This document shows positions 3,912 through 19,506 of a stretch of 54,056 bases of DNA, in pieces. A program made the translations under genes and the position numbers. The notes beneath the pieces were generated by a model. It was not told where the DNA came from and searched no databases. It was given only the letters and a program-made list of their open reading frames with translations. The DNA is taken from the sequence record SRR22947725_1514. One strand, written 5' to 3'. The stretch's first letter is position 1. Each line of letters starts with the position of its first letter.

Positions 3912-5282
3912 TTGAATAAAAAAAATACAAGAATAGAAAAAGATTCAATGGGTGAATTTGAAGTCCCAGATTCAGCAAAGTACGGTGCCTCAACTGCAAG
4001 AGCTGTTGAAAATTTTCCAATATCAGAACTAAAATTTTCAAGAACTTTTATAAAATCGCTAGCTGAAGTTAAAAAAGCATGTGCCGTAGTAAATCATAAA
4101 AATAATCTTTTACCTAAAAATATTGCTGACGCAATTATAAGTAGCTCCCAAGAAGTTATTGAAGGTATGCATGATGGAGACTTTGTTTTGGATATTTTTC
4201 AGACAGGATCTGGAACATCTACCAATATGAATGCTAACGAGATAATCGCTAACTTAGCATCTGTTAAAAGTGGTGAACCTGTGCACCCGAATGACCATGT
4301 TAATATGAGCCAATCATCCAATGACATAATTCCAACTGCTACCAACGTTGCATGTGTTTTAGATGTTGTCAATAATCTCATACCAGTCCTTGAAAACCTT
4401 GAGAGTTCTCTTAGTGAAAAAGCTAAGTTGTGGGAGAAAGTTTATAAAAATGGTCGTACGCACTTAATGGATGCTACTCCTGTTACTTTAGGCCAGGAAT
4501 TTGCTGGCTATGCTTCATTGATCCAAGAAAGAACAAAAGATATTGAAACTGCCTTAATTAATGTAAGAAAACTTGCAATTGGAGGGACGGCAGTAGGAAC
4601 AGGGATTAATGCTCCAGAAAATTTTGGTAGCGACGTATCACTTGAATTGCAACAATCTCTTGATACTCCATTTCAAGAAATTGAAAATCACTTTACCAGA
4701 CAAGGTTCAAGAGAGGAAATTGTGCAACTCTCAGGGACCCTAAAATCATTAGCCGTATCTCTTTTTAAGATAGCAAATGATATTAGGTGGATGGGGAGTG
4801 GACCTGTTTCAGGCTTGGGAGAGCTTAAAATTCCTGCACTACAGCCAGGTTCCTCAATTATGCCTGGAAAGGTCAATCCAGTCATTCCAGAAATGATGAT
4901 GCAAGTATCTGCTCAAGTTATTGGAAATGATACTGCTATCACATTCTCTGCAGCAAATGGTAATTTTGAACTAAATACGATGCTACCAATTATGGCTCAT
5001 AATATTTTAGAAAGTATATCAATCCTCACAACTGGGGCAAAAGTATTTACAGAAAAATTAGTAAATGGACTTGAAGCGAATACAGATAAATTAGATGAAA
5101 ATATTCAGAAAAACTCAATTCTAGTTACTGCGTTAGTACCAAAGCTTGGTTATGACATTGCTGCTGAGGTCGCAAAGGAAGCTATTGCTGAAAACAAGAC
5201 TATAAAGACAGTTCTTTTAGATAGAGCTTTGTTACCTGAAAATGAAATAGACGAACTTTTAGATATTGAAAAATTGATTTGA
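3912..5282 (+). CDS. fumC: Class II fumarate hydratase
   Basis: RIEKDSMG, QTGSGTSTNMNANE, HPNDHVNMSQSSND, GRTHLMDA, GSSIMPGKVNP. Confidence 0.95.
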   Translation: MNKKNTRIEKDSMGEFEVPDSAKYGASTARAVENFPISELKFSRTFIKSLAEVKKACAVVNHKNNLLPKNIADAIISSSQEVIEGMHDGDFVLDIFQTGSGTSTNMNANEIIANLASVKSGEPVHPNDHVNMSQSSNDIIPTATNVACVLDVVNNLIPVLENLESSLSEKAKLWEKVYKNGRTHLMDATPVTLGQEFAGYASLIQERTKDIETALINVRKLAIGGTAVGTGINAPENFGSDVSLELQQSLDTPFQEIENHFTRQGSREEIVQLSGTLKSLAVSLFKIANDIRWMGSGPVSGLGELKIPALQPGSSIMPGKVNPVIPEMMMQVSAQVIGNDTAITFSAANGNFELNTMLPIMAHNILESISILTTGAKVFTEKLVNGLEANTDKLDENIQKNSILVTALVPKLGYDIAAEVAKEAIAENKTIKTVLLDRALLPENEIDELLDIEKLI

Positions 5283-5716
5283 TGATTACAAAAGTTGCGA
5301 TTGCTTCAGACCACAAAGGGTATGCACTCAAGGAGTACATCGTTAATAATTTTGACAAGCAAATGACCGTTATGGATTTTGGAACAAACAGCAAGGAAAG
5401 TTGTGACTTTCCAGATTTTGCATCTAAAGTGTGCGAGTTTGTTCTTGAAAATGATGACTCTAGGGGGATACTAATTTGCGGAAGTGGTGTTGGTATGTCA
5501 ATAGCTGCTAATAAATTTGTAGGAATACGAGCAGCTAATGTTTCAGATGAGCTTACTGCAGTTCAGAGTGTTGAACATAATAATGTAAATATATTATCCC
5601 TCGGATCAGATAATGTTGATAGAGAATTAGCTATGAACATTGTCATTTCATTTCTTAATTCAAACTTTAGCGAGGAAGAAAGATACCAAAGAAGAATTAA
5701 TAAACTAGCTAATTAA
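5279..5716 (+). CDS. rpiB: Ribose-5-phosphate isomerase B
   Basis: ASDHKG, CGSGVGMSIAANK, HNNVN. Confidence 0.93.
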   Translation: MMITKVAIASDHKGYALKEYIVNNFDKQMTVMDFGTNSKESCDFPDFASKVCEFVLENDDSRGILICGSGVGMSIAANKFVGIRAANVSDELTAVQSVEHNNVNILSLGSDNVDRELAMNIVISFLNSNFSEEERYQRRINKLAN

Positions 5717-6572
5717 TCGTAAAAAGATTTTTGCCTTCGAAACTTTTTGTACCATTTACGTAGCTAAAATACTTTCTGCACTCACATGATTGATACTCAA
5801 TATCAATAGGAAAAAATTCTCTTTTTGCTTCAGGCCAGTAATCTTTTTGCAGTTGAATCATTTTTAATCCAACATCCTGATGTGAATCTAAGTTTAAAAA
5901 ATCTTGAAGTCTGTCGAGATATGGTTCCGCTCCTATGCCAGTTGGAACATTTGAAGTCATTGGAATAACATCTTGTCTAAACCAGGCAATATCAATTAAC
6001 GCCATAAAAATTGGAAAATCATTATTCATTTTAAATATTGTGTTTATATTATTTGTTGCAGTAATTACGTCTTTATTTGAGTTAAGAATTATTTCGGTCA
6101 AAGCTTCCTTATTTTCATAAAATTTATACGTTGCTGCATCTATTCTTTCATATTTATTCCCATCCCAAAATGAACTCTCTACAGGATAAGCTGAAAAATT
6201 TTCCCATTGTTCTAAATTAAGAAGTTTTCTTTTTAAAATTTCTGGATCTTTTAAATCATGTATATTTAAATGATCTAAAGTAACTTGTCTATTACACCAC
6301 CTACTAAAAAATAGGGCTTGAACAAGTAAGGGGAGATCATCTTTAGCTGATGTAGCAAAATTAATAATGGACTTACTAACTTTGTCATCTTCTCTGAATA
6401 CATTTAAAAATCTACCTTGTTGAAATATCAGATCATCACTCCAGGGAAAGGTCAGACCAGCTTCTCTTTTTTGACGGATACTTTCACGTTCTTTGCAATA
6501 ATTAAAAAAACTTTCTACTGGATTTTCTATTTTTAGTCCATCCAAGGATGTTTTATATTTATTTATAGTCAT
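5709..6572 (-). CDS. aGPT-Pplase1 / 5-hmdU DNA kinase helical-domain-like protein
   Basis: N-terminal FFNYCKERESIRQKR..PWSDDLIFQQGRFLNVFREDDKVS, central GIGA, C-terminal DIEYQSCECRKY. These match the remembered family pattern ER..I..R..PWTDDPIL..kF.NvyR..Dr.S / GPGA / d.E..LCE..KY. Confidence 0.75.
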   Translation of the reverse strand: MTINKYKTSLDGLKIENPVESFFNYCKERESIRQKREAGLTFPWSDDLIFQQGRFLNVFREDDKVSKSIINFATSAKDDLPLLVQALFFSRWCNRQVTLDHLNIHDLKDPEILKRKLLNLEQWENFSAYPVESSFWDGNKYERIDAATYKFYENKEALTEIILNSNKDVITATNNINTIFKMNNDFPIFMALIDIAWFRQDVIPMTSNVPTGIGAEPYLDRLQDFLNLDSHQDVGLKMIQLQKDYWPEAKREFFPIDIEYQSCECRKYFSYVNGTKSFEGKNLFTIN

Positions 6573-6573
6573 G

Positions 6574-6930
6574 TTAGATTGACATTTGCCAAATAGCTTT
6601 TATCCAATCATCTTGAATCTTATTTCTAGCGAAAACTACAATACCAATTGCACCTTCTTCATAAACTTCTCTCATAGAGGTTCCGGTCGTGTAAACATCA
6701 TCTGCAATTAAAAGTGGATCACCCGGTTTTTTTGTGGAGTATTTTTTAAGAGCTTTTTCAAATGGTATGCCCCCGCGGGGAATGCCTTTTACTTCTCTAA
6801 ATACTATCTTTTCACTTACAATCTTTGCAAGTGCTTCATAATCATTTTCGGATAAGGCATCACACTCTACTTTCCACGTAAGAGGAAGTCCAGCATGAGA
6901 AATAAAGTCTTCTTTAATAAATAGATTCAT
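6574..6930 (-). CDS. pyrE: Minimal phosphoribosyltransferase, probable orotate PRTase
   Basis: PRPP-binding loop LIADDVYTTGTS, GIPRGG, F.SHAG hood; position in the pyr operon; only 118 aa. Confidence 0.7.
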   Translation of the reverse strand: MNLFIKEDFISHAGLPLTWKVECDALSENDYEALAKIVSEKIVFREVKGIPRGGIPFEKALKKYSTKKPGDPLLIADDVYTTGTSMREVYEEGAIGIVVFARNKIQDDWIKAIWQMSI

Positions 6931-7604
6931 AATAACTTCCTTAATTTTAGCGGATTAAAACAAACAGTTCCCAAGCTTATGTGATTTGCTCCAATATCTT
7001 TATAATATTGCATATCTTCCTTCGTGTACACTCCACCTCCGGCGATAGTCTCAACTTCAGGATAATTTTTATTAATGTGTTCTATAAATTTAGTAGTATA
7101 TGGAATAAGCTCTTTCCCACTTAAACCCCCCTCTGCAATTGGAAGTGTATTGCAGGCGTGTATTTGTTTAAATCCAAACACTGTAATGTAATACTCCAGT
7201 TCTTTAAAAGTAGTTGTTGGAGAAATTTTACCTATGAACCACTCTCTTGAGTCGGAACTAAAGTCTTCTATGCCGTCTGTATAGTGTTTATCTATGTTTG
7301 GACAAGACATATTTACCTCTAGGTTAAAATGATCCGGGATAATTTTTGTGAATATTTTCCAGTCATCTTTCTCTATACCTGCTATTGAAAACACATCAGT
7401 ATGTTTATATTTGTTAATACCATCATTAACTCCTGGATTCCTTAGACCAATTTTGTTAACCCAGCCACGTTTGGTGTAACGTAATGTTTTTACGATTTGC
7501 CTCAACCTACCCGTTCTTTTGTCTACTGTCCAGCTGCCTGTAACGGATATTGTTTTACTAGTTTTTATATAGTTTCCAAAGGGTGCAGCAATAAACTTAT
7601 TCAT
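6927..7604 (-). CDS. pyrD: Minimal class-1-like dihydroorotate dehydrogenase
   Basis: NKIGLRNPG, catalytic EVNMSCPN, CNT, GGLSG, IAGGGV; only 225 aa. Confidence 0.82.
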   Translation of the reverse strand: MNKFIAAPFGNYIKTSKTISVTGSWTVDKRTGRLRQIVKTLRYTKRGWVNKIGLRNPGVNDGINKYKHTDVFSIAGIEKDDWKIFTKIIPDHFNLEVNMSCPNIDKHYTDGIEDFSSDSREWFIGKISPTTTFKELEYYITVFGFKQIHACNTLPIAEGGLSGKELIPYTTKFIEHINKNYPEVETIAGGGVYTKEDMQYYKDIGANHISLGTVCFNPLKLRKLL

Positions 7605-8239
7605 AATTTCAACTCTTTAATAACATACTCAATATTATTTCTCAATGACCTTCCCATAACTAAATAATCTGCACCTGATTGAATAGCTAGTTCGGGTGTG
7701 GTTGTATTCTTTTGATCATCAATATCATCATTTTCTAAACGTATTCCGGGTGTAACAATAAGATTAAATAATTTTTTCGTGCTCACTATTTCAGATGGCG
7801 GGCAGATAACTCCATCAATTTTTGATTCTTTAGCAATTAAAAAATCTTTAAGCACCTCGTCACTAGTTGTTGGTGTAGATGCTTTACTGGTTAGTGCACG
7901 ACTAACACCAAGTATTTTAATATTTTTAGCTTTATTTTCTTGTGCTGCATCTAGGGCTTCTTTTCCTGATGCTATGTGAATCGTTAAAAAATCTGCTCCT
8001 ATGTTTCCTGCATTAACAGTTGCTGCTTGAACAGTGTTTGGTATGTCATGTAACTTCAAATCAAGAAAAACATTCCAACCATCTTTTTTAAGTTCTTCAA
8101 CCGCAGAAGGGCCTTCAGATGTGAATAATTCAAGACCAACTTTAACACCGTAAATATGTCCCTTAAGCATTTTTAATTCAACATCAAAGTCTGATAATTT
8201 TTTACTATCAAGTGCGAAGAAGATTGGTTTAACTGACAT
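7601..8239 (-). CDS. pyrF: Orotidine-5'-phosphate decarboxylase
   Basis: [28 protein letters not shown]. Start moved to ATG 8239 (MSVKPIFF). Confidence 0.94.
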
Positions 8240-11200
8240 CTTGTATAGTTCCAATATCTTCTAGCGCATTTGTACTTTGGGCGTATGCTTTTATAAAGGC
8301 TTCAGCCTCTCTTATTGATGAAACAACAGCAACACCTGAATCATGTGCAAGTCTTCTAATTTTCCATCCGTCAGTATATTCATTTGCAAATGTAGGCGTA
8401 TTAATCACCACAGAAATAAGATTTTCTTCCATTATCGTTAAAGATGTTGGAGATACATCATTAGCTCTTCCAACTTTTATAGATTTTATATCATTTTGTG
8501 ATAGAAATTCAGATGTTCCTTCAGTCGCATAGATTTTAAAACCAAGCTCTTTATATTTAATAATGGTTTGAAGAAACCGTTCTTTGTCATTATTACTCAA
8601 TGTGACAAATATCCCTTTTTTCTTATCTCCAATTTCCACACCTGCAGCTGCATAAGCTTTATTTAAAGCAATACCTAGTTCACTCCCTATCCCAAGAACT
8701 TCTCCAGTAGCTTTCATTTCAGGACCTAGCATTGTATCTTCAGCAGGGAAACGAGACCATGGAAAGATAGCCTTTTTAACTGCAATTTTATTATTAGAAT
8801 CATTCAAATAATCTGTATTTACAAGGATATCTTTTATTTTATGACCCAACATTATTAGTGTCCCTGCTTTAATTATCTGATTCTTAGTTACTTTGGCAAC
8901 AAAAGGCATGGTTCTAGATGCTCTTGGATTAGCTTCTAATATGTAAAGAACATCATTCTTAATAGCAAATTGAATATTTAGTAGACCCTTTACATTAAGG
9001 CTTTTCGCAAGTCGTTCACTCTTATCCATAATCTCATTTATCATATTTTGAGAAAGGCTAAAAGGGGGGAGTATTGCTGTTGAATCTCCGCTGTGAACTC
9101 CTGCAGGTTCAAGGTGCTCAAGTATTCCTGCAATAATTACATCCGTTCCATCACTTATTAAATCAACATCAATCTCGATAGTATTTGTTAAATACTCATC
9201 AACTAATAGGGGACCAGAGTTAAATGGATTTCCATCTTCGTCACTTTTAGATAAAACATTCAAATAATTATCTAGCTCTTCTTTTGTGCTTACTACTCTC
9301 ATTGCCCTACCTCCCAATACATAGCTTGGACGAAGTAAAACAGGAAAGCCTATATCAGCTACTGCCTGTGTGAGTTCAACAGAATTTTCTGCAATTTTTG
9401 ATATTGGTTGTTTAATATTTTCCTGAGTACAAAGTTTTTGAAATAATTCTCTGTCTTCAGTTGAATCGATAACCTCAATACTTGAACCAGCTATGATGTA
9501 CCCATTCTCAGAAATTTGCTTTGCTAGCTTAAGGGGAGTTTGTCCTCCTAACTGAATAATTACAGATTTTGGACTCTCTCTTAATAGAACTGCTTCTACC
9601 TCTTGCCAATTCAACGGCTCAAAATATAATTTATCTGCTGTGTCATAATCAGTCGAAACAGTCTCAGGATTAGAATTTATCATTATAGCTTCATATCCGT
9701 TTTCCTTTAAAGCGTCTATTCCGTGAACACAGCTGTAGTCGAATTCTATTCCTTGTCCAATTCTGTTTGGCCCAGACCCGATAACTACAACTTTTTCTTT
9801 TGTGCTGGTTACATCATCGCTTTCTTCTCCTGTTGTTGAGTACAAGTATGGAGTCATAGATGAAAATTCTGCAGAACAAGTATCCACTAATTTATATACT
9901 CTTTTTTCAGCAAGCTCATTTTTTATATCTTTTGTCTCAACATCATCCTCAGTCCAGCCAAGCATTCTAAGTATTGTTGTTGGAGTTGTTTCTTGATTAA
10001 CATTAAAACTTTTTTCAATTTCATATAAAAACCATTCATCAATATGACTTAGATCAGAAATTTTGGAAACACTCCAGTTTCTCCTTAGTGCTTCCAGCAC
10101 TGCAAATATTCTTCTTGGACGAGGTATCGCAATTTCCTTTTCAAGCTCAATTTTGTCAAGATTAATGAATCTATTATCAATATTTCTTATCCCTGTTTTA
10201 CCAATTTCTAAAGACCTTATTGCCTTTGTTAAACTTTCTGTAAATGTTGAGGCCATAGACATAACCTCACCAACACTTTGCATAGACGTTCCTAGAATGT
10301 CATCTGTAGATGGAAATTTAGGAAAATCAAAACGTGGAATTTTTACTACAACGTAATCTTGTACAGGCTCAAAACTAGCCGGAGTCGAGCCTGTGATATC
10401 ATTGCTCAGCTCAGTAAGGTTATATCCTACCGCTAACAATGCTGCAAATTTAGCTATTGGAAAACCTGTTGCTTTTGAGGCTAAAGCTGAAGATCTTGAG
10501 ACTCTTGGGTTCATTTCAATTATACGTCTTTCACCATTTTTTGGATTTACCGCAAACTGTACATTGCTACCCCCTGTTGCAATTCCTATTGTTTCGAGAC
10601 ACAAAAGAGCATCATCTCTCATTAACTGATATTCTTTATCAGAAAGGGTTTGGATTGGTGCAACAGTTATAGAATCGCCGGTATGCACTCCCATTGGATC
10701 AAAGTTCTCAATCCCACAAATTATTACTCCATTACCATCTTTATCTCTCATAACTTCAAGTTCAAACTCTTTCCATCCATATACTGATTCTTCGATCAAA
10801 ACTTCTTGGGTTGGAGATGCCCTGAATGCAACTTTTAGTTTTTCATTTAACTCTTCACTGTTATGAACTAATCCAGTTCCACCACCACCTAAAATGTAAG
10901 AAGGACGAAGCATAAGGGGGAAACCTATCTTCACTCCTGCATCCATGCCCTCTTTGATTGTTTTTACATACAAAGCTTTTAAAGTTTCAATACCAACTTC
11001 TTCCATAGCTTCTTTAAATTTCCACCTATTTTCTGCTAATTCAATCGATTCAGCAGAAGCTCCTAGAATTTTTACATTAAATTTTTCAAATACTTTTTCC
11101 TTATTCAATTCCATTGCTAGATTTAAAGCAGTTTGACCACCTAAAGTTGGCAGAATTGCATCCGGCTTTTCTCTTTCGATTATCTTTGTTAAAAATTTAG

Positions 11201-11411
11201 TAGTCAGGGGTTCTATATACGTAGCATCTGCCATTGAGGGATCAGTCATTATTGTTGCAGGGTTTGAGTTAACTAGAATAACCCTGTACCCTTCATTTTT
11301 TAGCGCTTTTGCTGCCTGAGATCCTGAATAATCAAATTCACATGCCTGACCAATTACAATTGGACCAGAACCGATAATTAAAATACTATTTATACTTTTA
11401 TCAACTACCAA
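8229..11411 (-). CDS. carB: Carbamoyl-phosphate synthase large subunit
   Basis: [52 protein letters not shown], second ATP-grasp unit, MGS domain. Confidence 0.98.
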
Positions 11412-12498
11412 TTTTTTCCCTAATCATTTTAAAAAATGGATTAAACAACTCTAAGCCGTCTGTTGTTCCTGGACCTGATTCAGGATGAAATTGAACTGAA
11501 TAAGCATTTGATTCCCAGATAGATATGCCCTCATTACTCCCATCGTTTAGATTTACTGCATATTGCTCAATTTCTCCGAACTCGGAATGTTTTTCTTTAT
11601 TACTGCCAAATTCAACTGAAAATCCATGGTTCTGGGAAGTGATAAGTGCTTTTTTGATTCCACTAACTTTTACAGGATGATTTGAGCCATGGTGTCCAAA
11701 ATTTAGTTTTGAAACATTTAGATCACATGCAAGACTTAAAATCTGATGTCCTAAACATATTCCAAAAAGTGGTAGCTTTCCAATTAAATTTTTTACAGTA
11801 CTTACAACATCTACCAAAGACCTTGGATCTCCGGGCCCATTAGAAATTATCAATCCTATTAAATTTAAAGAAAGTATTTCATCTGCTGTAATCTCAGGGT
11901 TTAAAAGTAAAGTTTCAAATCCGTTGTTTTCGACTACATTAATTATGCTTTGTTTTGTTCCAAGGTCAATAATCCCAATTTTATTCTGAGCAAAAGCTGT
12001 ATCATAATCTCCACGTCCAGCTTTTAATGCTGATTTATCACCAACGATATCTACCGATGTATTGAGTAAGTCCATAAGCTCAGTACTGTTTACGCCCGTT
12101 CCCATAGCAAACATGCTTGAACCTGAATCTCTTAAATGCGATGTTATAGACCGAACATCGAAACCTCCTGAAAAGGGTACTTTATGCTCCTTCAACCACG
12201 ATGTGATTGGCTGTTCTGATCTCCAGGATGAAGGATTGTTGGTGAAGCTATTCCCGATTGCTCCATTTACTCTTGGCTTTTCTGATTCAAAATCTTCTTT
12301 TGATAATCCATAGTTCCCAATATGAGAAGAGGTGAAGGTAACTATTTGATTAACATAAGAAGGATCACTAAGAATTTCAACGAAACCTGTCATAGCTGTA
12401 TTAAAAATTAGTTCACCAGTAGCTGGAAGAAAGTCATCAGTCGTCCACCCAATAAATTCTTTACCTTCTTTATTAACCAACAAAACCTTTTTATACAT
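11401..12498 (-). CDS. carA: Carbamoyl-phosphate synthase small subunit
   Basis: [35 protein letters not shown]; likely start at MYKK. Confidence 0.96.
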
Positions 12499-13546
12499 GC
12501 ACACCATTTGTTTCTATCAAAGTTTTCCTACCTTCAAATAAAGAATTTTTGGGATTTGAATTTGTATAAAATTTCTTGTCACAAAATTCCCATTTAAAGC
12601 TATTTGATTTTTTTAACTCATAACCCAGCTCTGACAAAATTTTTCTTGGGTTTTTATCCAGATACCTTTCTAATTCATCGAGTGAAAAAATCTCTGATGA
12701 ATACAGCATCGGAAAAGCTGATTCTAACCCGACCACACCCCTGGCAGCATCTTTAAAGGCTCTCTGCTTACTTTCAATCGTATGAGGAGCATGGTCAGTA
12801 GAAATTACATCGATCGTTCCCTCTTTTAAACCTTCGATGAGTGCAAGTTGGTCTCTACTTGTTCTTATCGGTGGATACATTTTATACATTCCATTGGAAG
12901 TTTCAATATTTGTATTATTTATAAGTAAGTGATGTGGAGTTACTTCTGCAGTTACAGGAAGTTTGTTCATTTTTGCTTCTTTTATTAAACGGACACTCTC
13001 TTCAGTAGATAAGTGTTGTGCATGATATCTAGTTCCATATTTTTCAACTAGATTAAGGTCCCTTTCTAAAATCTCTGTCTCCTCAGATACAGGAATAGGT
13101 TTCAAAATACCTCCGTCATTAGGGGGAGCAATATCACCTGGCGAAGTATGACAACTTTTTTCACAGTGCTGAAATACTGCTCCATTTTCAAACTTTAATG
13201 ACTTAAAAATTTCTTCAGCTAAAGCATCATCAACAACTGAATGGCCATCATCAGTAAAAATAAATACTCCGTGACCTATAAATTCCTTATAGTTAATTGG
13301 CTCCTTGCCTAAAAGACCCTTAGTAAGTGATCCTGTTCTGTGTACTTTTATGTCTAAAACTTCATCAAATCGTTTCGCCTCTAATAGGTTCTCTATACTG
13401 TCAATGATTTTGGCAGAATTCGGCATTGCAAGAATTTCTGAATACCCCCCATTTTTTGCAGCTATTTCTATATCTTGTGCTTTAATAAATGTTTTACCTG
13501 GATATCTTGTGTGAGTATGTAAATCCAAAAAGCTATTAGTTTCCAT
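12491..13546 (-). CDS. pyrC: Dihydroorotase
   Basis: DLHTH, MPN, FTDDG, HCE, HLST, EVTPHHL, PPIR, TDHAPH. Confidence 0.93.
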   Translation of the reverse strand: METNSFLDLHTHTRYPGKTFIKAQDIEIAAKNGGYSEILAMPNSAKIIDSIENLLEAKRFDEVLDIKVHRTGSLTKGLLGKEPINYKEFIGHGVFIFTDDGHSVVDDALAEEIFKSLKFENGAVFQHCEKSCHTSPGDIAPPNDGGILKPIPVSEETEILERDLNLVEKYGTRYHAQHLSTEESVRLIKEAKMNKLPVTAEVTPHHLLINNTNIETSNGMYKMYPPIRTSRDQLALIEGLKEGTIDVISTDHAPHTIESKQRAFKDAARGVVGLESAFPMLYSSEIFSLDELERYLDKNPRKILSELGYELKKSNSFKWEFCDKKFYTNSNPKNSLFEGRKTLIETNGVHV

Positions 13547-14424
13547 TAGATTTCTCCTAAGCCATAAAGATAACTAGCAATTCTGGAAGGGACTCCAAAA
13601 GAGAGTTGCTCAATGTATTTAAACTTACTATTTTCAGATGCTTCTTTAGAAATTTCGACTCCGATGTTCATCGGCATTGGATGAATAGCTAAAAAATCAG
13701 AAGATGTTTTATCTAAAATTTGATTTGTAAGTTGAAATGAATGTATATAGTCATTTAGATCATAGTCATCTATATTATCAATTCTTTCTTTTTGAACCCG
13801 TAGTAGGTTAATCGAAGAGTTTGAATCAATGACATCATCCCAGGTAGAAAAAATATGACACCCACTTGTATCTTCAGGGATAAAAAAATCTGGGGCAAAT
13901 ATTCCAACTTGAAATCCAAGTAAATTTAACAATTCTTTAGTTGAAGAGTAAACCCTAGAATGTTTGATATCCCCAATAAATATAAGAGGGACATCGCCAT
14001 TAAGTTTTTCATATTTCATCAAGGTTGCAATATCTAATATTGATTGAGTTGGGTGAGAAGTTGAACCAAAACCCGCACTTATAATCGAAATATTTTCAAA
14101 TCTACGATAGTCGTCTAAATTATCTTCTTTTGTACGCATAACAAGAGACTCTACTCCCAATGAAATAAGTGTTTGAATTTCGTGATCAAGAGATTCTCCT
14201 TTTTTTTGGGATGAGGTTTGGTCTTCTAATAAGATTAAATCTAGCCCAAGCTTCTGTGCTGCAATTGTAAAAGAAACCTTTGTTCTAGTGGATGGTTCCT
14301 CAAATTTGATTACCGAATGTCCTTTAGCTTCATATTGATCACCATCCCTGACTTTGAGAGTTGTTTCTATAATCTTTAAGGCAACATCTCTGTCTATATC
14401 ACTAAAATCAAGTAAATGATTCAT
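13546..14424 (-). CDS. pyrB: Aspartate carbamoyltransferase catalytic subunit
   Basis: EPSTRT, KGESL, HPTQ, GDIKHSRV, RVQKER, HPMP. Confidence 0.95.
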   Translation of the reverse strand: MNHLLDFSDIDRDVALKIIETTLKVRDGDQYEAKGHSVIKFEEPSTRTKVSFTIAAQKLGLDLILLEDQTSSQKKGESLDHEIQTLISLGVESLVMRTKEDNLDDYRRFENISIISAGFGSTSHPTQSILDIATLMKYEKLNGDVPLIFIGDIKHSRVYSSTKELLNLLGFQVGIFAPDFFIPEDTSGCHIFSTWDDVIDSNSSINLLRVQKERIDNIDDYDLNDYIHSFQLTNQILDKTSSDFLAIHPMPMNIGVEISKEASENSKFKYIEQLSFGVPSRIASYLYGLGEI

Positions 14425-14930
14425 TAACTTACTTCAACCTCATCTTTATCATCAAGCTCATTCAAATATACAGATACATACTCGCTCTCATTAGTAGGTA
14501 TATTTTTTCCAACAAATCTTGGTGAAATGGGAAGCTCTCTGTGCCCCCTATCAATTAAGCATGCAACCGAGATTGATTTAGCTCTTCCAGAATAAATAAC
14601 AGCTTCAATAGATGCTCTTAAAGTTCTTCCTGTGTAGACAACATCATCAATTAATATAACATCTCGATCTTGAGGATTTACAATTAGAAAAGTTTTATCA
14701 CCTTCAGATGTCAAGTCATCTCTAAATGGTTTGTAATTTACTGTATCTAGGTCGTGGGAGTAGTTTTCTTCAACTAGGTTATTTGAAATTCGTTTAGCTA
14801 GATGATCACCTCGTCTTGGAATTCCAATTAGTAAGGGGTTGGTTATTTCTGATTCAATAATTTCTTTTGAAACCCTATAAAGAGTTTTGTTTATGTCCAT
14901 GACATTCCTTTCGATACTCACAGGTATCAT
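14424..14930 (-). CDS. pyrR: PyrR bifunctional regulator / uracil PRTase
   Basis: GIPRRG, RDDL, LIDDVVYTGRTLRA, LIDRGHRELPI, VGKNIPT. Confidence 0.93.
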   Translation of the reverse strand: MIPVSIERNVMDINKTLYRVSKEIIESEITNPLLIGIPRRGDHLAKRISNNLVEENYSHDLDTVNYKPFRDDLTSEGDKTFLIVNPQDRDVILIDDVVYTGRTLRASIEAVIYSGRAKSISVACLIDRGHRELPISPRFVGKNIPTNESEYVSVYLNELDDKDEVEVS

Positions 14931-14975: not shown

Positions 14976-15905
14976 TTATCTACTTTCTCTAAAAAATGGA
15001 ATTCCAATATTACTTGGGGCACCAGTTCTCCCACCTTTATAGATAGTTAATACCACCAAAATAATTATGGTTATCGCATAGGGAGTGATTTTTACAAGAT
15101 AAGGACTTAATTCAAATCCGTATGTTTGTAATCTTGGAACAAGAGCTTCTAAAAAACCAAATAGTAGAGCTCCGATTGCAGTTCTGTATGGTTTCCATCC
15201 ACCAAAAATTACCAATGCCAGAGCAATCCAGCCTCGTCCAGATGTCATATTGTCCGTCCAATATGGAACATAGCTTAATGTTAGATATACACCAGCTAAC
15301 CCTGAAAGTCCTCCACCAACACAAGTTGCAATAAATTGTGTTTTGTTAACGTTTAAACCCATTGAATCTGCTGCCCTAGAGTCTTCACCAACTGCTTCAA
15401 GCCGCCTTCCGAACATAGTTTTTTTAAGTAAATAAGCAGTACTAATCATCAGGAAGATGCTTAAATAGAAAATATAATTTTGGCTAATAAAAACCTCAAT
15501 AATGTTTGTAGGTTCGTCTATATTTCCTAAGCTTTCAATTTTTACAGGTAATTTTTTTCCAACATATTGTTTACCCATTAAAGCAGACAGAGAGAGACCC
15601 AATATTGTAAGAATTAAACCTGAGACCGTTTGATCCTGCTTTAGAATTATTGTTACAAATGCATGCAAAGATGAAAATAAAGATGCAGATAAGATACCAA
15701 CTAAAACTGAAAGAAAAATATTTCCTGTATTAACTGCAGTTATAAAACCCGTCACAGCACCAATCGATATCATTCCCTCTACTCCAAGATTAAGTATTCC
15801 GGATTTTTCAGTTATCAATTCTCCTAGAGCCGCAATGAAAAGTAAAGTTGCGGCTTGCAGGGTTGCGTTCAATAAACCCATAAGCTGAATATCAAACATC
15901 TTCAC
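14976..15905 (-). CDS. Nucleoside/purine ABC transporter permease
   Basis: ALGELITEKSGILNLGVEG, AVGE..AADSMG, GRGWIALALVIFG. Confidence 0.9.
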   Translation of the reverse strand: MKMFDIQLMGLLNATLQAATLLFIAALGELITEKSGILNLGVEGMISIGAVTGFITAVNTGNIFLSVLVGILSASLFSSLHAFVTIILKQDQTVSGLILTILGLSLSALMGKQYVGKKLPVKIESLGNIDEPTNIIEVFISQNYIFYLSIFLMISTAYLLKKTMFGRRLEAVGEDSRAADSMGLNVNKTQFIATCVGGGLSGLAGVYLTLSYVPYWTDNMTSGRGWIALALVIFGGWKPYRTAIGALLFGFLEALVPRLQTYGFELSPYLVKITPYAITIIILVVLTIYKGGRTGAPSNIGIPFFRESR

Positions 15906-16953
15906 TGACCTTTATAATTTTATATGTAAAAAAGAATTGAGCTATAAGTGCTCCAAATAATGTAGTAGCTTGGATTACATCTGCAATATAACTACTCACT
16001 CCCATAGTTTGAATTACAGATCCTCCAATAGTAAGCGCACCAAATAATGAACCCACTAAAAAAATACCTAATGGGCGCATACCTGTTATTGCTGCCACGA
16101 TAATTGCTGTGTACCCAAATCCCTGGGATAGCCCAGTAGAGACTCTATGCGTTTGGCTCAAAAGCTCAACCCCACCAGCCAAACCTGCTAAACCACCACC
16201 AATCAACATTGCAATGAAGGCTTTTTGTTTTGCATTTATTCCGGCATATATTGCAGTTAGCGCAGATCCACCAGAAATTCTTAGTTCATATCCAAAAACA
16301 GATTTTTCTTTCAAATAGTGAACCCCAATAGTGCATAAAAAGCAGATTATAAAACCGTAACTCAGTCTTCCAAAAACTGTTGGTAAATAAACTTCTTTCC
16401 CAACGTAGGTAGCTGCAGGAAAGTTTAAAGAGTTAGGGTCTTTCCAGGGCCCATTAACTAGATAAATAGTTAAACCAATAATGATGTAATTAAAAAGTAG
16501 AGTAGTAATAATTTCATTTACTCCAAATAAAACTTTTGCAATAGCAGGAAATAATATACACACGGCTCCACCTATAAACGAAGTGATGAGTAAGTATACG
16601 ATCATTAAATTCGGGCTGGAAATTTCTGTATTAATGTAAAGAAAATTAAGAGCTATTCCTCCCATGAATATTTGACCTTCAGCACCAATATTCCACAATT
16701 TAACTGAGTTTATGATTGAGATGCCAAGTCCTGCAAGAATTAAAGGGATAGCTTTATTTAATGATGTACTAATACTCTTTACACTTCCCACAGATAGTCT
16801 CAACATAAGAGAAAATACCTCAATAGGGTTTTGTCCTTGAGTTAATAAAATTATTGAACCAATTCCGATTCCAATCGAAAGCCCAATTAGAAAAGAATAA
16901 AATGTAGAGAGTTCATTAATTACTATTTTTTTTGATAACAGATATTTATTCAT
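15892..16953 (-). CDS. Nucleoside/purine ABC transporter permease
   Basis: WNIGAEGQ, NEIITTL, GGLAGLAG, GYTAIIVA. Confidence 0.9.
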   Translation of the reverse strand: MNKYLLSKKIVINELSTFYSFLIGLSIGIGIGSIILLTQGQNPIEVFSLMLRLSVGSVKSISTSLNKAIPLILAGLGISIINSVKLWNIGAEGQIFMGGIALNFLYINTEISSPNLMIVYLLITSFIGGAVCILFPAIAKVLFGVNEIITTLLFNYIIIGLTIYLVNGPWKDPNSLNFPAATYVGKEVYLPTVFGRLSYGFIICFLCTIGVHYLKEKSVFGYELRISGGSALTAIYAGINAKQKAFIAMLIGGGLAGLAGGVELLSQTHRVSTGLSQGFGYTAIIVAAITGMRPLGIFLVGSLFGALTIGGSVIQTMGVSSYIADVIQATTLFGALIAQFFFTYKIIKVSEDV

Positions 16954-18442
16954 TTAGGCCTGCCATTGCTAGGCCAACGCTCTCAATATCCGCTTCATCC
17001 ATGCTAAATTCTTTTACAATTCGACCCTCGTACATCACGATTATTCGGTCACTTAGTTTAAATAGTTCATCTAGGTCCTCTGAAATTAACATAACTGCAG
17101 CACCTTTGTCTCTTTGCATTACAATCAAATCATGTAGAGCCTCAACAGCATTGACATCCAGACCTCTAGTTGGCTGAGCGGCAATAATTACTTCAGGATT
17201 TGAAATCAACTCTCTTCCCATCAGTAATTTTTGCATATTACCTCCAGATAAAGTAGAAACTTCAGCTTTTGGATTCGGAGCTTTTATTGAAAACTGTTTA
17301 ATTAGTATATTCAAATAATTTAACATTTTGTTACCAGAGAGATGTGGACCAAATCTAGCTTTGTAATAATCTTTTAATGCAGAGTTATCTATTATTGATA
17401 CTCCTGGCGCAAGACCAACACCAAGCCTATTTTCTGGTATGTAGGACAAATTTAAATTTTTTCTTGAACTTACTCCCTGATTTGATATATTTTTACCATT
17501 TACAATAACTTTTCCTGAATACTCTCTTTCTATTCCAGATATTATATTTGCTAGTTCAACTTGACCATTTCCAGAAACTCCAGCTATCCCTAAAATTTCT
17601 CCAGCCCTAACCTTAAGTGATAAATTTTCAAGAGTGGGTACATTTGAGTGTGTATTTTCAAAAAATATATTTTCAAGTTCAAGCTTATTAGTTCCTTTTT
17701 GGTTATCTTTCCTTATCTCTGATTGTTTAATCTCACCCATCATCAATGTAATTAGTTCATTTTTTGTAACATTTTTAGTTTCTAAATCTTTTGCCACCAT
17801 TACGCCATCTTTAAGTACAAATATAGAGTCTGTAAATTCTTGGATCTCCTTTAATTTATGAGTAATCAAGACAATTGTTTTACCGTCTTCTTTAGAGAGC
17901 TTTTTTAAGGAAATCTTTAATTGATTTGTTTCCTGTGGTGTAAGTACGGCTGTTGGTTCATCTAAAAGCATTATCTTGTTGTTGTTAAATATGAGTTTCA
18001 TTATTTCAATTTTTTGTTTCTCTCCAACAGATAACTCACTTATTGGTGTTGAATAATTAACTGTTAGCGAAAATATATCTGAGTACTTTTCGTAACCTTC
18101 ATGAAAACTATTTGTATAGATATTTGCTTTAGATAGTGTCAAATTGTCTTTAATACTAAAGTTATCGATGAGTCGAAATTCTTGGTGAACCATTCCAATT
18201 CCAAGTTTTGATGCAATATCGGGATTTAATTTTTTAACTTTTTCACCGTCTATATAAAGAGAGCCATTTTCAGGCTGATAAATTCCAGATAAAATATTCA
18301 TTAATGAGGATTTACCTGCACCATTTTCGCCAAGCAGACCATGGATTGTTGATTCGTATAAGTAAAAATCTACATTCTTAAGAGCATTGGTATTTCCAAA
18401 GGATTTTGTAATATTTTTTGCTTCTAGGATAATTTGATTCAT
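16946..18442 (-). CDS. Nucleoside ABC transporter ATP-binding protein with two ABC domains
   Basis: GENGAGKS, LDEPTAVLTPQE, GVSGNGQ, LSGGNMQK, QPTRGLD. Confidence 0.93.
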   Translation of the reverse strand: MNQIILEAKNITKSFGNTNALKNVDFYLYESTIHGLLGENGAGKSSLMNILSGIYQPENGSLYIDGEKVKKLNPDIASKLGIGMVHQEFRLIDNFSIKDNLTLSKANIYTNSFHEGYEKYSDIFSLTVNYSTPISELSVGEKQKIEIMKLIFNNNKIMLLDEPTAVLTPQETNQLKISLKKLSKEDGKTIVLITHKLKEIQEFTDSIFVLKDGVMVAKDLETKNVTKNELITLMMGEIKQSEIRKDNQKGTNKLELENIFFENTHSNVPTLENLSLKVRAGEILGIAGVSGNGQVELANIISGIEREYSGKVIVNGKNISNQGVSSRKNLNLSYIPENRLGVGLAPGVSIIDNSALKDYYKARFGPHLSGNKMLNYLNILIKQFSIKAPNPKAEVSTLSGGNMQKLLMGRELISNPEVIIAAQPTRGLDVNAVEALHDLIVMQRDKGAAVMLISEDLDELFKLSDRIIVMYEGRIVKEFSMDEADIESVGLAMAGLNE

Positions 18443-18453
18443 TAAGTGATTGT

Positions 18454-18489
18454 TTACAACGCTCTAGTCATCCGACTAGAGCGTTGTAA
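18454..18489. terminator. Perfect 16-bp inverted repeat between the binding-protein and ATPase genes (stabiliser or partial terminator)
   Basis: TTACAACGCTCTAGTC-ATCC-GACTAGAGCGTTGTAA; no long U-tract on the sense strand. Confidence 0.75.
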
Positions 18490-18498
18490 TACATCTAG

Positions 18499-19506
18499 TT
18501 ATGGATTAACTGTTCCAATAACGTTACTAATAAATTCTTCTTCAACTATCGCAACTTCTAGAGTTCCATTGATAATTGCTTCAGTTTTTTCGGCAATTAA
18601 TGTTGCTGTTTCAGATGGTACGTCTGAAGATAAATCGTATAGAGAAACTAAACCAGTCTCCATACCTCCCCAGTAACTTTCTGTAGTGAAAGTTCCATCA
18701 ATTATTGATTCAACAATATCAACATAATATGGACCCCAATCCCAGACTGGAGCCGTTACAAATGCTTCTGGAGCAGAGTCTTGACCATAAGCAGTGTTGT
18801 ATGATATCCATTTTGCACCAGCAGCTTCTGCAGCTAGTCCTGTTGCTGCTGAATCTTGGTGTTGAGCAAGTACATCTGCACCTGTTTCAAGCAGTGCATT
18901 TGCAGCTTGTGTTTCTGCTTCTGGACCAAACCATGTGAATGTCCAAACTACTTCAACAGTAGCATCAGGGTTCACTTCATTTACTCCTGCGGCAAAAGCA
19001 TTAATTCCTCTAATTACTTCTGGTATTGGAAATGCTGCAACATAACCAATTTTATTTGAATCAGTCATAGCCCCTGCAGCTAAACCAGAAAGATATCTTG
19101 GCTGATACATCTTTCCAAAATAATTCGCAAAGTTTGTATCGTTGTTTAGATATCCTGAGCAATGTAAGAAAATGACATCTGGATATTCCTCTGCCATTTC
19201 TGCCATCGCATCAATGTAACCAAAAGTTGTTCCAAAGATAATATTGTAACCTTGTTCAATATATGCTTCTGCAACTGTTCTGAATTCTGTAGCATCTTCT
19301 GGTACTAGAGCTGTGTACTCTGTTTGAATACCCGTTTGTTCTACTAGATATTGTCGACCTACATCATGTGCTTGTGACCATCCACCATCGTCTGCTGGAC
19401 CTACATACACAAATGCAGCTTTATATTCATCTACGGATGCGGCTCCACCGCATGCCATAGTAAGAATACTGATTAAGATTAGACCTACCGCCCATCTTCT
19501 ACGCAT
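18499..19506 (-). CDS. BMP-family lipoprotein, nucleoside/purine ABC substrate-binding protein
   Basis: Signal peptide with lipobox LTMA-C; DGGWSQAHDVG, FGTTFGY, PIPEVIRGINAF, QHQDS. Confidence 0.92.
   Translation of the reverse strand: MRRRWAVGLILISILTMACGGAASVDEYKAAFVYVGPADDGGWSQAHDVGRQYLVEQTGIQTEYTALVPEDATEFRTVAEAYIEQGYNIIFGTTFGYIDAMAEMAEEYPDVIFLHCSGYLNNDTNFANYFGKMYQPRYLSGLAAGAMTDSNKIGYVAAFPIPEVIRGINAFAAGVNEVNPDATVEVVWTFTWFGPEAETQAANALLETGADVLAQHQDSAATGLAAEAAGAKWISYNTAYGQDSAPEAFVTAPVWDWGPYYVDIVESIIDGTFTTESYWGGMETGLVSLYDLSSDVPSETATLIAEKTEAIINGTLEVAIVEEEFISNVIGTVNP

Follow-up and report, generated by a model that had tools for sequence, protein, structure and literature searches.

The locus and its genes

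The stretch of DNA analysed here (the window) covers 54,056 nt of sequence record SRR22947725_1514. The ORF under study, labelled X, starts with ATG, encodes 287 aa, and occupies positions 5709-6572 on the minus strand; its product is a stand-alone protein of the HMUDK_hel (aGPT-Pplase clade 1) type. X follows on the same strand pyrF, encoding OMP decarboxylase (7601-8254; PF00215, E 1.4e-35), a short dihydroorotate-dehydrogenase-like protein of 225 aa, candidate for PyrD (6927-7604; PF01180, 50 bits in two stretches), and a mini-PRTase of 118 aa, the best candidate for PyrE (6574-6930). The single base 6573 separates the mini-PRTase ORF from the start of X, and the 1-nt spacing described in the first-pass annotation is therefore exact. 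On the plus strand, rpiB (5279-5716; PF02502, E 1.8e-49) converges on X, and the 3' ends of the two genes overlap by 8 nt (5709-5716). The GC content of X is 29%, compared with 33-37% in the surroundings, a gap too small to argue for recent transfer.

Gene content of the host organism was read from the near-identical genome G001 and its relatives. The names pyrE and pyrD, used at first pass, hold for candidates only. The mini-PRTase matches pyrE and PRTase profiles weakly (E 0.004-0.006); all of the ten best PDB matches of its model (pLDDT 92.5) are orotate PRTases (E 9e-6 to 2e-4), and no pyrE gene scores above the cut-off elsewhere in G001. Similarly, the 225-aa protein is the only DHO_dh match in G001. 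Although adjacent to X, the mini-PRTase does not form a functional unit with it. The nucleoside transporter which had been noticed upstream is real. It is a Bmp/PnrA-type ABC system (binding protein, ATPase and two permeases; PF02608, PF00005, and PF02653 twice) encoded at 14976-19506 on the minus strand, upstream of the pyr operon in the window, and found directly upstream of X in the loci L065, L070 and L084.

Family membership and predicted fold

X is a member of the HMUDK_hel/aGPT-Pplase clade-1 family, as the first-pass annotation had proposed from motifs. It matches PF18723 (HMUDK_hel, formerly aGPT-Pplase clade 1) with E 1.2e-16 and 61.4 bits, over a cut-off of 25, in a nearly full-length alignment (residues 19-269 on profile positions 4-272 of 281), and phrog_2396 as well (E 6e-18). 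The profile of HhH-GPD glycosylases (PF00730) and that of clade-2 transferases (PF18724) gave no match to X at E up to 1. All the motifs quoted at first pass are found in the protein. The N-terminal family motif, ERESIRQKREAGLTFPWSDDLIFQQGRFLNVFREDDKVS, set by alignment columns, spans residues E28-S66 (6375-6491, minus strand), and reads ERESIRQKRE...PWSDD...RFLNVFREDDKVS. The glycine hairpin G212-I-G214-A ("GIGA", G212-A215; 5928-5939, minus strand) is supported by alignment and model, and the C-terminal catalytic-type motif D257-Y268, DIEYQSCECRKY (5769-5804, minus strand), defined by alignment, carries E259, C263, E264 and K267. In an alignment of 34 sequences D47, R60, D63, G214, C263, E264 and K267 of X are invariant, E259 and G212 near-invariant. 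The same alignment, along with a comparison of cellular proteins and 49 viral homologues, indicates that R29, P43, W44, D47, F55, N57, R60 and D63 of the N-terminal motif are conserved family-wide. Cellular and viral groups have in common 26 positions, among which E259, C263, E264 and K267.

The aGPT-Pplase family was reportedly defined by Iyer et al. in 2013 and is known, to our knowledge, only from phage thymine-hypermodification clusters. Phage clade-1 proteins, as gp50 of Pseudomonas phage PaMx11, belong to the same Pfam family (gp50 141 bits, X 61 bits), and share with X the N-terminal motif, the 26 conserved positions and a similar length. Yet, BLASTP aligns to gp50 only 95 N-terminal residues of X, at 34% identity. 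X is moreover chromosomal, and is not flanked by the kinase, the clade-2 transferase and the dUMP hydroxymethylase which neighbour gp50. The absence of such partners had been noted for the window at first pass. It stands for the hydroxymethylase, since PF00303 (thymidylate-synthase type, dUMP hydroxymethylase) was not found in the one genome searched for it, G001, which is 92% complete, and matched 10 of 14 control genomes. It is weak for the PF18748 kinase and the PF18724 transferase, neither of which was found in the five Actinomarina genomes searched (0/5 each), because control genomes are silent for both models too; PaMx11 gp49 itself scores just 18 bits on PF18748, gp46 97 bits on PF18724. 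Cellular and phage proteins differ also in charge. X has a pI of 5.21 and a net charge of -7, and cellular proteins are mostly acidic (median pI 5.74), whereas the 49 viral homologues are basic (median pI 8.81). Charge is not conserved in the cellular clade, as some members are basic, with a pI of 8-9, and, compared with the viral group, the cellular one has lost seven basic positions and gained eleven others.

The AlphaFold2 model of X (pLDDT 95.4) is all-helical, and its comparison by VIA-align points to a helix-hairpin-helix glycosylase-like fold, in line with the fold class suggested at first pass. Foldseek alone found nothing in the PDB at E <= 0.001, and the family profile searched against PDB sequences gave chance-level matches only, missing 8z2m. 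The top 18 VIA-align rows are all Qng1, gp46 or HhH DNA glycosylases (Z 4.8-8.6). Z-scores around 8 are middling for a helical protein. The best match is Qng1/DUF2419, which has the HhH-glycosylase-like fold (7u07, Z 8.6, 202 aligned residues, rmsd 5.8; 7ugk, Z 8.1). Qng1 has no detectable sequence similarity to X and is a hydrolase with a purine-type substrate; as its Z-score is tied with those of DNA glycosylases, the likeness is one of analogy, not of membership. HhH-GPD glycosylases (AGOG, Tm1821, AlkA, Mag1, Nth) feature the same two-lobed helical fold (Z 5-8) and a glycine hairpin, but use Asp/Lys, whereas the conserved catalytic-type residues of X are Cys/Glu.

A fold similar to that of X is found also in the amino-acid:DNA transferases of clade 2 (PF18724), represented by PaMx11 gp46/PUGT (8z2m; Z 8.2, 208 aligned residues, rmsd 4.4). 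The spacing of Glu243 and Cys247 in gp46 equals that of the E-x3-C of X, and an acidic residue flanks the Cys in both, which suggests, from spacing and not from superposition, that the residues are equivalent. In contrast with this structural likeness, gp46 and X have no match at the sequence level, and no source of 5-PmdU was found in the cell. Clade-2 enzymes cannot do without the Cys and the Glu next to it, and there is support for a C6 thiol adduct. No activity is assigned in the literature to members of clade 1, and one of them, M6 gp55, is dispensable in the phage pathway reconstituted in vitro. In the model of X the GIGA hairpin sits in the loop preceding helix 216-226. G212 and G214 appear to take the place of the helix-hairpin-helix phosphate-binding loop, and might bind a phosphate.

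Distribution and changing gene context

Of 65 genomes from the order Actinomarinales 58 carry X, among them all 12 of high quality, and the gene is hence not the sporadic single-strain insertion that the first-pass annotation had considered as a way for its proposal to fail. In Candidatus Actinomarina, a tiny, abundant, streamlined ocean bacterium, X is part of the core genome as a single copy. It is flanked by housekeeping genes, and is cellular rather than prophage-borne. X is intact and under purifying selection (median dN/dS 0.123 over 509 pairs). Little dispensable DNA is retained in such streamlined genomes. The clade to which X belongs, delineated by a quick tree with SH-aLRT support only and a midpoint root, is marine and made exclusively of bacteria: Marinimicrobia/SAR406, Candidatus Actinomarina and a few other marine plankton lineages. 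Identity ranges from 58 to 100% within the clade, and is at most about 30% over the full length to viral homologues. Isolated phages share 25-28% identity where 86-93% of X is covered, and up to 38.5% in short N-terminal segments. The analysis documents a compact, bacteria-only branch of a phage family, maintained as a core gene in some of the most abundant and streamlined ocean bacteria.

Relatives were sought in genomes with a narrower alignment (A2), and the best 80 of 178 confirmed loci were kept. One (L090), in which no member ORF was called, was left out, and the 79 loci counted include 52 from Actinomarinales and 27 from other marine bacteria. Within this set of the best 80 of 178, the 5' neighbour of X in Actinomarinales is a PRTase gene in 20 loci, umuC in 29, and a nucleoside ABC transporter in 3. 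In the 29 loci hosting umuC, X is on the same strand, and a divergent S24 (UmuD/LexA-like) gene is present. No pyr gene is adjacent to X in the 27 loci of other marine bacteria, again among the best 80 of 178. In the genome G010 a pyrF-pyrD-pyrE block ends directly at rpiB, without X, which is placed behind umuC.

It had been proposed at first pass that X is coupled to pyrimidine metabolism as the last gene of the pyr operon. One form of such coupling would have X as the partner completing the miniature PyrE or the short PyrD, both candidates being unusually small. The 1-nt gap to the mini-PyrE gene is compatible with coupling, and between that gene and X no promoter- or terminator-like signal above chance occurs in this window (at 5000-8400, 11 promoter-like sites versus 15.2 expected, and 1 terminator-like site versus 1.2 expected, counts too close to chance to be informative). 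In RNA libraries from 4 runs of 4 studies, contigs cover X and in every run span its junction with PyrE, but they span the convergent rpiB-X junction as well; they are therefore no proof of a transcript, DNA carry-over being possible. The comparative context largely refutes the coupling, which we regard as very improbable. X adjoins pyr genes in just 20 of the 52 Actinomarinales loci and in none of the 27 others (best 80 of 178), the G010 block does without X, and PyrE-like genes of ordinary length (191-200 aa), with no mini-PyrE, are found in 6 of 6 other genomes bearing X. As the first-pass annotation had made its case depend on a conserved link to pyr genes, this part of it falls, and the operon link which motivated interest in the gene is not real. 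The pyrimidine link of X is positional, the place behind mini-PyrE being one of several interchangeable positions, and X does not belong to the de novo pathway of pyrimidine synthesis.

Free nucleotides or DNA as substrate

Relatives of X fused to other domains are informative. A C-terminal AAA_28 (NadR-type P-loop kinase) domain is present in 18 of 20 long homologues, and also in L118, P0121 and P0129. The sole curated match of this domain is the C-terminal part of NadR (28 bits, far under the cut-off of 341 of the model), and the domain is unlike the phage 5-hmdU DNA kinase gp49. In P0285, a single protein from one 1.7-kb contig, the X homologue is fused to a ComEB/dCMP-deaminase-type domain. 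Both types of fusion favour a free nucleotide as substrate. On these grounds, the reading that we prefer, with a probability of roughly 0.4, is that X processes a free 5-substituted uracil nucleotide. Clean-up or recycling of an altered pyrimidine nucleotide is a likelier task for the protein than DNA modification, and the looser idea of the first-pass annotation, that X might salvage or remove modified pyrimidines, finds some support in the fusion partners. The same direction is indicated by Qng1, the best structural neighbour, which is described in PMC9881137 as a salvage enzyme acting on a free nucleoside 5'-monophosphate. In 23 of the 52 Actinomarinales loci (among the best 80 of 178) X follows genes of nucleoside uptake or pyrimidine metabolism, which favours a free nucleotide as well. 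So does the prevalent acidity of cellular proteins relative to the basic viral ones, an argument made weak by the basic members of the clade and by the balance of basic positions gained and lost.

The most likely mechanism can be outlined. X would bind a phosphate-bearing, hydroxymethyl-type 5-substituted uracil unit, and Cys263 would add to C6 of the ring, as in clade-2 relatives, opening chemistry at the C5 substituent. The substrate may be a free (deoxy)nucleotide, for example 5-hydroxymethyl-dUMP, and X would then serve to clean or salvage the nucleotide pool; where relatives carry a fused kinase or deaminase, that domain would supply the X domain with its substrate. Thymidine kinase is encoded in 5 of 5 Actinomarina genomes, and an imported analogue could thus be phosphorylated. 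Hydroxymethyl-uracil may reach the environmental nucleoside pool from phage DNA and from dinoflagellate DNA. A more specific scenario, doubtful as a whole, is that the marine bacterial branch is a hitherto unrecognised enzyme which sanitises the pool of 5-hydroxymethyl-type pyrimidine nucleotides or salvages them, a counterpart in role of human DNPH1. Cys-at-C6 chemistry could, for example, strip or convert the C5 substituent to give dUMP or dTMP, the substrate being provided in some lineages by the fused nucleoside-kinase-like or dCMP-deaminase domain, and abundant, streamlined heterotrophs such as Actinomarina and SAR406 would keep the gene because they import nucleosides from a pool containing hydroxymethyl-uracil. 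A precedent exists, as human DNPH1, a 5-hydroxymethyl-dUMP N-hydrolase, protects DNA by hydrolysing 5-hydroxymethyl-dUMP, according to PMC10483697 and PMC12751057; the two proteins are unrelated, and the analogy is functional only. If its substrates are free modified pyrimidine nucleotides, X would add a new step to pool sanitation or salvage in bacteria, and clade 1 would gain its first function.

Some observations sit less easily with a free-nucleotide substrate. The conserved G212/G214 hairpin fits binding to the DNA backbone equally well as to a nucleotide phosphate. In the most frequent Actinomarinales arrangement (29 of 52 loci, best 80 of 178) X lies directly behind umuC, in a DNA-damage context. 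In addition, the NadR match is far below cut-off, the deaminase fusion has been seen once, and the Z-scores are middling.

Alternatively, X could flip out and repair or excise 5-hydroxymethyl- or 5-formyl-uracil, as oxidised or 5-substituted thymine/uracil, in the DNA of the cell itself, plausibly in the frame of damage tolerance at the sunlit surface. Such a role is rather unlikely, but is the main rival of the free-nucleotide reading. X shares its fold with HhH DNA glycosylases and retains the conserved glycine hairpin; dsDNA binding and base flipping are known from gp46, its closest relative with a known function, and the known uses of the wider family are all on DNA. The co-directional position of X immediately after umuC, with a divergent S24 gene, points to repair too. 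However, this adjacency, scored among the best 80 of 178 loci, is missing in the window, in 23 other Actinomarinales loci and in all the 27 loci from other phyla. Most Actinomarina copies of X have an acidic net charge, and the fusion partners are enzymes of free nucleoside or nucleotide metabolism. Actinomarina keeps UDG and 2-3 HhH-GPD glycosylases, leaving no obvious gap in repair. As all 11 genomes examined encode UDG and HhH-GPD proteins, the notion that X is a stand-in for a lost glycosylase was set aside. Activity of X on DNA would define a new type of direct base-repair enzyme. Under either reading X, a soluble protein of 287 aa modelled with confidence, is easy to express and assay.

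A role as anti-phage defence gene, attacking phage DNA which contains 5-hydroxymethyluracil or hypermodified thymine, is improbable. The family stems from the phage-host arms race, and the DefensePredictor paper places an aGPT-Pplase domain among predicted, unvalidated defence domains. Yet, none of the PADLOC-DB defence protein models (0 families) is matched by X or by the fused relative from L118, a protein of the 500-aa type, and a single-copy core gene under purifying selection, surrounded by housekeeping genes, is not a variable island gene.

Hardly tenable is also the hypothesis that X, as an analogue of TenA or ThiE, acts on the thiamine pyrimidine (HMP or related compounds). TenA and ThiE also perform chemistry at the C5-methylene of a pyrimidine, and in Actinomarina genomes ThiE (0/5), TenA (0/5) and a clear ThiD were not found; a preprint reports that thiamine synthesis and the salvage kinase are absent from 84 complete genomes. 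However, all other thiamine genes are missing in Actinomarina, so that a lone enzyme for the pyrimidine moiety would feed no pathway. Besides, TenA occurs in 5 of 6 other genomes bearing X, hence the distributions are not complementary, and the conserved site of X is common to phage enzymes acting on uracil derivatives.

Family and fold of the 287-aa protein

The 287-aa ORF at 5709-6572 on the minus strand (X) encodes a new cellular form of a known phage family. The protein matches the Pfam profile PF18723 (HMUDK_hel, formerly aGPT-Pplase clade 1) with an E value of 1.2e-16 and 61.4 bits, against a cut-off of 25. The alignment takes in positions 4-272 of the 281 in the profile, and phrog_2396 is matched as well. 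The assignment to clade 1 made in the first-pass annotation is thus sound, and all the motifs quoted there are found in X. No match was obtained at E up to 1 with either the clade-2 aGPT-Pplase or the HhH-GPD model, nor any with NCBIfam models. Titles, abstract openings and passages of the literature on aGPT-Pplase and HMUDK_hel proteins contain no treatment of a cellular stand-alone member or of Actinomarina, and neither hypermodification nor pyrimidine is mentioned in the sections consulted of the Actinomarina preprint.

The AlphaFold2 model, built with a 34-sequence alignment, is nearly all helical (mean pLDDT 95.4, pTM 0.91). Foldseek found nothing in the PDB. In a full VIA-align sweep the top match is Qng1/DUF2419, a hydrolase of queuine salvage (7u07, Z 8.6, rmsd 5.8 over 202 aligned residues), followed by PUGT, the clade-2 enzyme gp46 of Pseudomonas phage PaMx11 (8z2m, Z 8.2, 208 aligned residues, rmsd 4.4). 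All subsequent ranks, down to 18, are HhH DNA glycosylases (Tm1821, AGOG, AlkA, Mag1, NTHL1, Nth and OGG1). For a helical protein, Z values near 8 are no more than moderate, and it is the consistency of the list which supports a predicted glycosylase-like fold class.

Residues D47, R60, D63, G214, C263, E264 and K267 are invariant in the 34-sequence alignment; R29, P43, W44, F55, N57, R91, Y129, D194, G212, E259 and G274 are nearly so. Both a conserved Cys and a neighbouring Glu are described as essential in clade 2, where an adduct of the Cys to C6, with an exocyclic C5 methylene, is supported by trapping experiments (PMC8989533). In the gp46 structure the flipped thymine is reported to be clamped by Cys247, and a metal to be held by Glu243/Thr244 (PMC11472151). 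The same Glu-x3-Cys spacing is formed in X by E259 and C263, which, judging from spacing rather than superposition, may correspond to Glu243 and Cys247. Catalytic-type residues are identical in the cellular and viral groups, suggesting that any chemistry performed by phage clade-1 proteins on a uracil derivative has probably been kept.

Distribution, relatives and neighbouring genes

Going by source names, the window comes from Candidatus Actinomarina. PF18723 occurs once per genome in 58 of the 65 genomes of the order (Actinomarinales), among which all 12 of high quality; the seven lacking it are 70-79% complete. Elsewhere in the class it was found in none of the 16 genomes searched. The genome nearest to the window, G001, is 1.1 Mb long, 92% complete, and has 84% of sampled words in common with it. 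Comparison of 52 Actinomarinales copies and the window (509 of 1326 pairs, with 0.05 < dS < 1.5) gave a median dN/dS of 0.123, ranging from 0.015 to 0.278. Because of this distribution and of the dN/dS values, X is a working core gene, and the notion that it is a relic or a sporadic insertion is ruled out. In RNA libraries (four runs, four studies), contigs of 95-99% likeness extend over X and across its junction with the upstream PRTase gene; since they also span the convergent junction with rpiB, they attest presence in the libraries only, and are no proof of a transcript.

Of 50,697 phage records, 28 match X, with 25-28% identity where most of the protein is covered, and up to 38.5% in short N-terminal segments. 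In IMG/VR (2.9 million contigs) 55 loci match, with a full-length identity of 30% at best. Copies 58-64% identical to X reside in Marinimicrobia/SAR406, in a MAG labelled Pelagibacteraceae, in a 'Deltaproteobacteria' MAG, and in unclassified marine MAGs. A maximum-likelihood tree from a quick search was made with 104 rows, namely the window, 24 of the 79 copies from genomes, 49 viral ORFs and 30 representatives from metagenomes; five near-duplicates were left out, as were two viral ORFs whose lengths fell outside 250-440 aa, and fused proteins were cut to the first 300-310 residues. A single clade (SH-aLRT 99) unites all 25 cellular rows with the metagenome proteins P0121-P0123, and the 49 viral rows, including the PaMx11 clade-1 homologue gp50, all lie across the midpoint root, which serves for drawing only, so that the direction of transfer is not readable from the tree. 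Copies from Actinomarina branch within those from Marinimicrobia, and kinase-fused forms make up a nested, derived subgroup. The clade is 'bacteria-only' in the sense that no close viral relative was found in the collections scanned; some members of the protein-atlas cluster of X are labelled viral, and the phylum is known for 9 members.

In the window, X closes a series of closely packed minus-strand genes, starting with a Bmp/PnrA-type nucleoside ABC transporter (14976-19506) and continuing with a PyrR-like PRTase (14424-14930), pyrB (13546-14424), a 351-aa ORF that takes the place of pyrC (12491-13546), carA and carB (8229-11411), pyrF (7601-8254), and the genes for a DHODH-like protein of 225 aa (6927-7604) and a PRTase of 118 aa (6574-6930), one base past which X starts. 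The convergent rpiB gene (5279-5716) overlaps X by 8 nt at the 3' ends. The GC content of X is about 29%, versus 33-37% in flanking genes (window 5700-6600).

The first-pass annotation had coupled X to the pyrimidine operon, a view which comparison of loci does not bear out. From 178 confirmed genome matches the best 80 loci were kept, ORFs were called and clustered, and neighbours were annotated by one representative per cluster; leaving out L090, a locus whose member ORF was not called, 79 loci were compared, 52 from Actinomarinales and 27 from other lineages. The 118-aa PRTase gene is directly upstream of X, as in the window, in 20 of the 52, and a Bmp-type ABC transporter permease in three. 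The latter still have rpiB-fumC downstream of X, hence the whole pyr block is simply missing between transporter and X. In 29 of the 52, X is directly preceded by the Y-family polymerase gene umuC, with a divergent S24 peptidase (UmuD/LexA-like) gene, an arrangement found in most Actinomarina species (L044 4118-5954; L022 1756-3072), and missing at X in the lineage of the window. In the related genome G010, pyrF, a short pyrD and the small PRTase gene stop directly at rpiB, and the contig has X at another site, behind umuC. No pyr gene is upstream of X in the 27 loci of other lineages, which feature an LptF/G permease (13), an Old-Yellow-Enzyme-type FMN oxidoreductase (7) or other genes (7). 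The pyrimidine link of X is positional. A preprint covering 84 complete genomes of Actinomarina likewise states that none of the gene adjacencies is shared by the whole genus.

The seven oxidoreductase loci (L101, L091, L095, L106, L111, L112 and L114) are of Marinimicrobia type, and the ene-reductase immediately precedes X; in L101 the two genes (4884-5993 and 5977-6861) overlap by 17 nt. In the window, X is one gene after that of the DHODH-like enzyme, which is also FMN-dependent. The two kinds of enzyme reduce a C=C bond conjugated to a carbonyl, as would be present in a 5-methylene-uracil intermediate, though this may be a coincidence.

Free nucleotide or DNA as substrate

A search for homologues of 504-2000 aa retrieved 20 proteins, 18 of which carry a C-terminal AAA_28 domain. 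P0285 (538 aa, from a single 1.7-kb contig) is fused to a dCMP-deaminase-type domain, whose best curated matches, ComEB and an anti-phage dCTP deaminase, are both under cut-off; in the remaining protein a half-length match is joined to an aminotransferase. The kinase fusion also occurs in a genome, as a single open 500-aa frame (L118). For the AAA_28 part a single curated match was obtained, with the NadR model (positions 153-325, E 1e-6, 28 bits, far under cut-off), in the stretch that corresponds to the ribosylnicotinamide kinase half of NadR. No similarity was found to the phage 5-hmdU DNA kinase gp49, which matches AAA_33, Zeta_toxin and HMUDK_HMUD1 instead. No AAA_28 gene over cut-off was found in Actinomarina.

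We tentatively favor, with a probability of about 0.4, action of X on a free 5-substituted pyrimidine nucleotide, because the AAA_28 and deaminase partners are enzymes of nucleoside/nucleotide metabolism, nucleoside-uptake or pyrimidine genes precede X in 23 of the 52 Actinomarinales loci, and Qng1, the best structural neighbour, is reported to use a nucleoside 5'-monophosphate (PMC9881137). The lower pI of cellular proteins (median 5.74, range 4.75-8.96, versus 8.81 in viral ones; X itself has pI 5.21 and net charge -7) points the same way, but the argument is weak, since the cellular clade has non-basic residues at seven positions which are basic in 76% or more of the viral copies, and is alone in having basic ones at 11 others. 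Human DNPH1 is described as a precedent for a dedicated sanitiser of 5-hydroxymethyl-dUMP (PMC10483697, PMC12751057).

Action on damaged thymine in DNA would fit the fold, the DNA-bound structure of gp46, the conserved glycine hairpin and the umuC neighbour in 29 of the 52 loci; we rate it somewhat less likely than action on a free nucleotide. Roles in thiamine-pyrimidine chemistry, in replacing a lost glycosylase or in defence were checked, and are unsupported. Tdk and ThyX are each present in 5/5 Actinomarina genomes; ThyA was not found in G001, the sole genome searched.

A strikingly small PyrE candidate

In G001 all genes fall short of the pyrE cut-off, and the 225-aa DHODH-like ORF is the sole PF01180 match there. 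The match (50 bits) is split over two stretches, and the ORF is much shorter than the profile, which has about 290 positions. The 118-aa PRTase is 83-88% identical across the compared species of the genus, and has relatives of 117-130 aa, 46-56% identical, in other metagenomic organisms. Its model is confident (pLDDT 92.5), and the ten best PDB matches are all orotate PRTases (E 9e-6 to 2e-4, query TM 0.62-0.75). Given the model, these matches, and the lack of any other pyrE over cut-off in G001, the protein is likely PyrE, and strikingly small: solved orotate PRTases span 166-225 aa, and it may be among the smallest. In all six non-Actinomarina genomes with X, the PyrE-like ORFs measure 191-200 aa and such a mini-PyrE is missing, thus X is independent of it. 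At 12491-13546, the 351-aa ORF that separates pyrB from carA matches no Pfam model at E <= 1e-5, and may encode a very divergent dihydroorotase.
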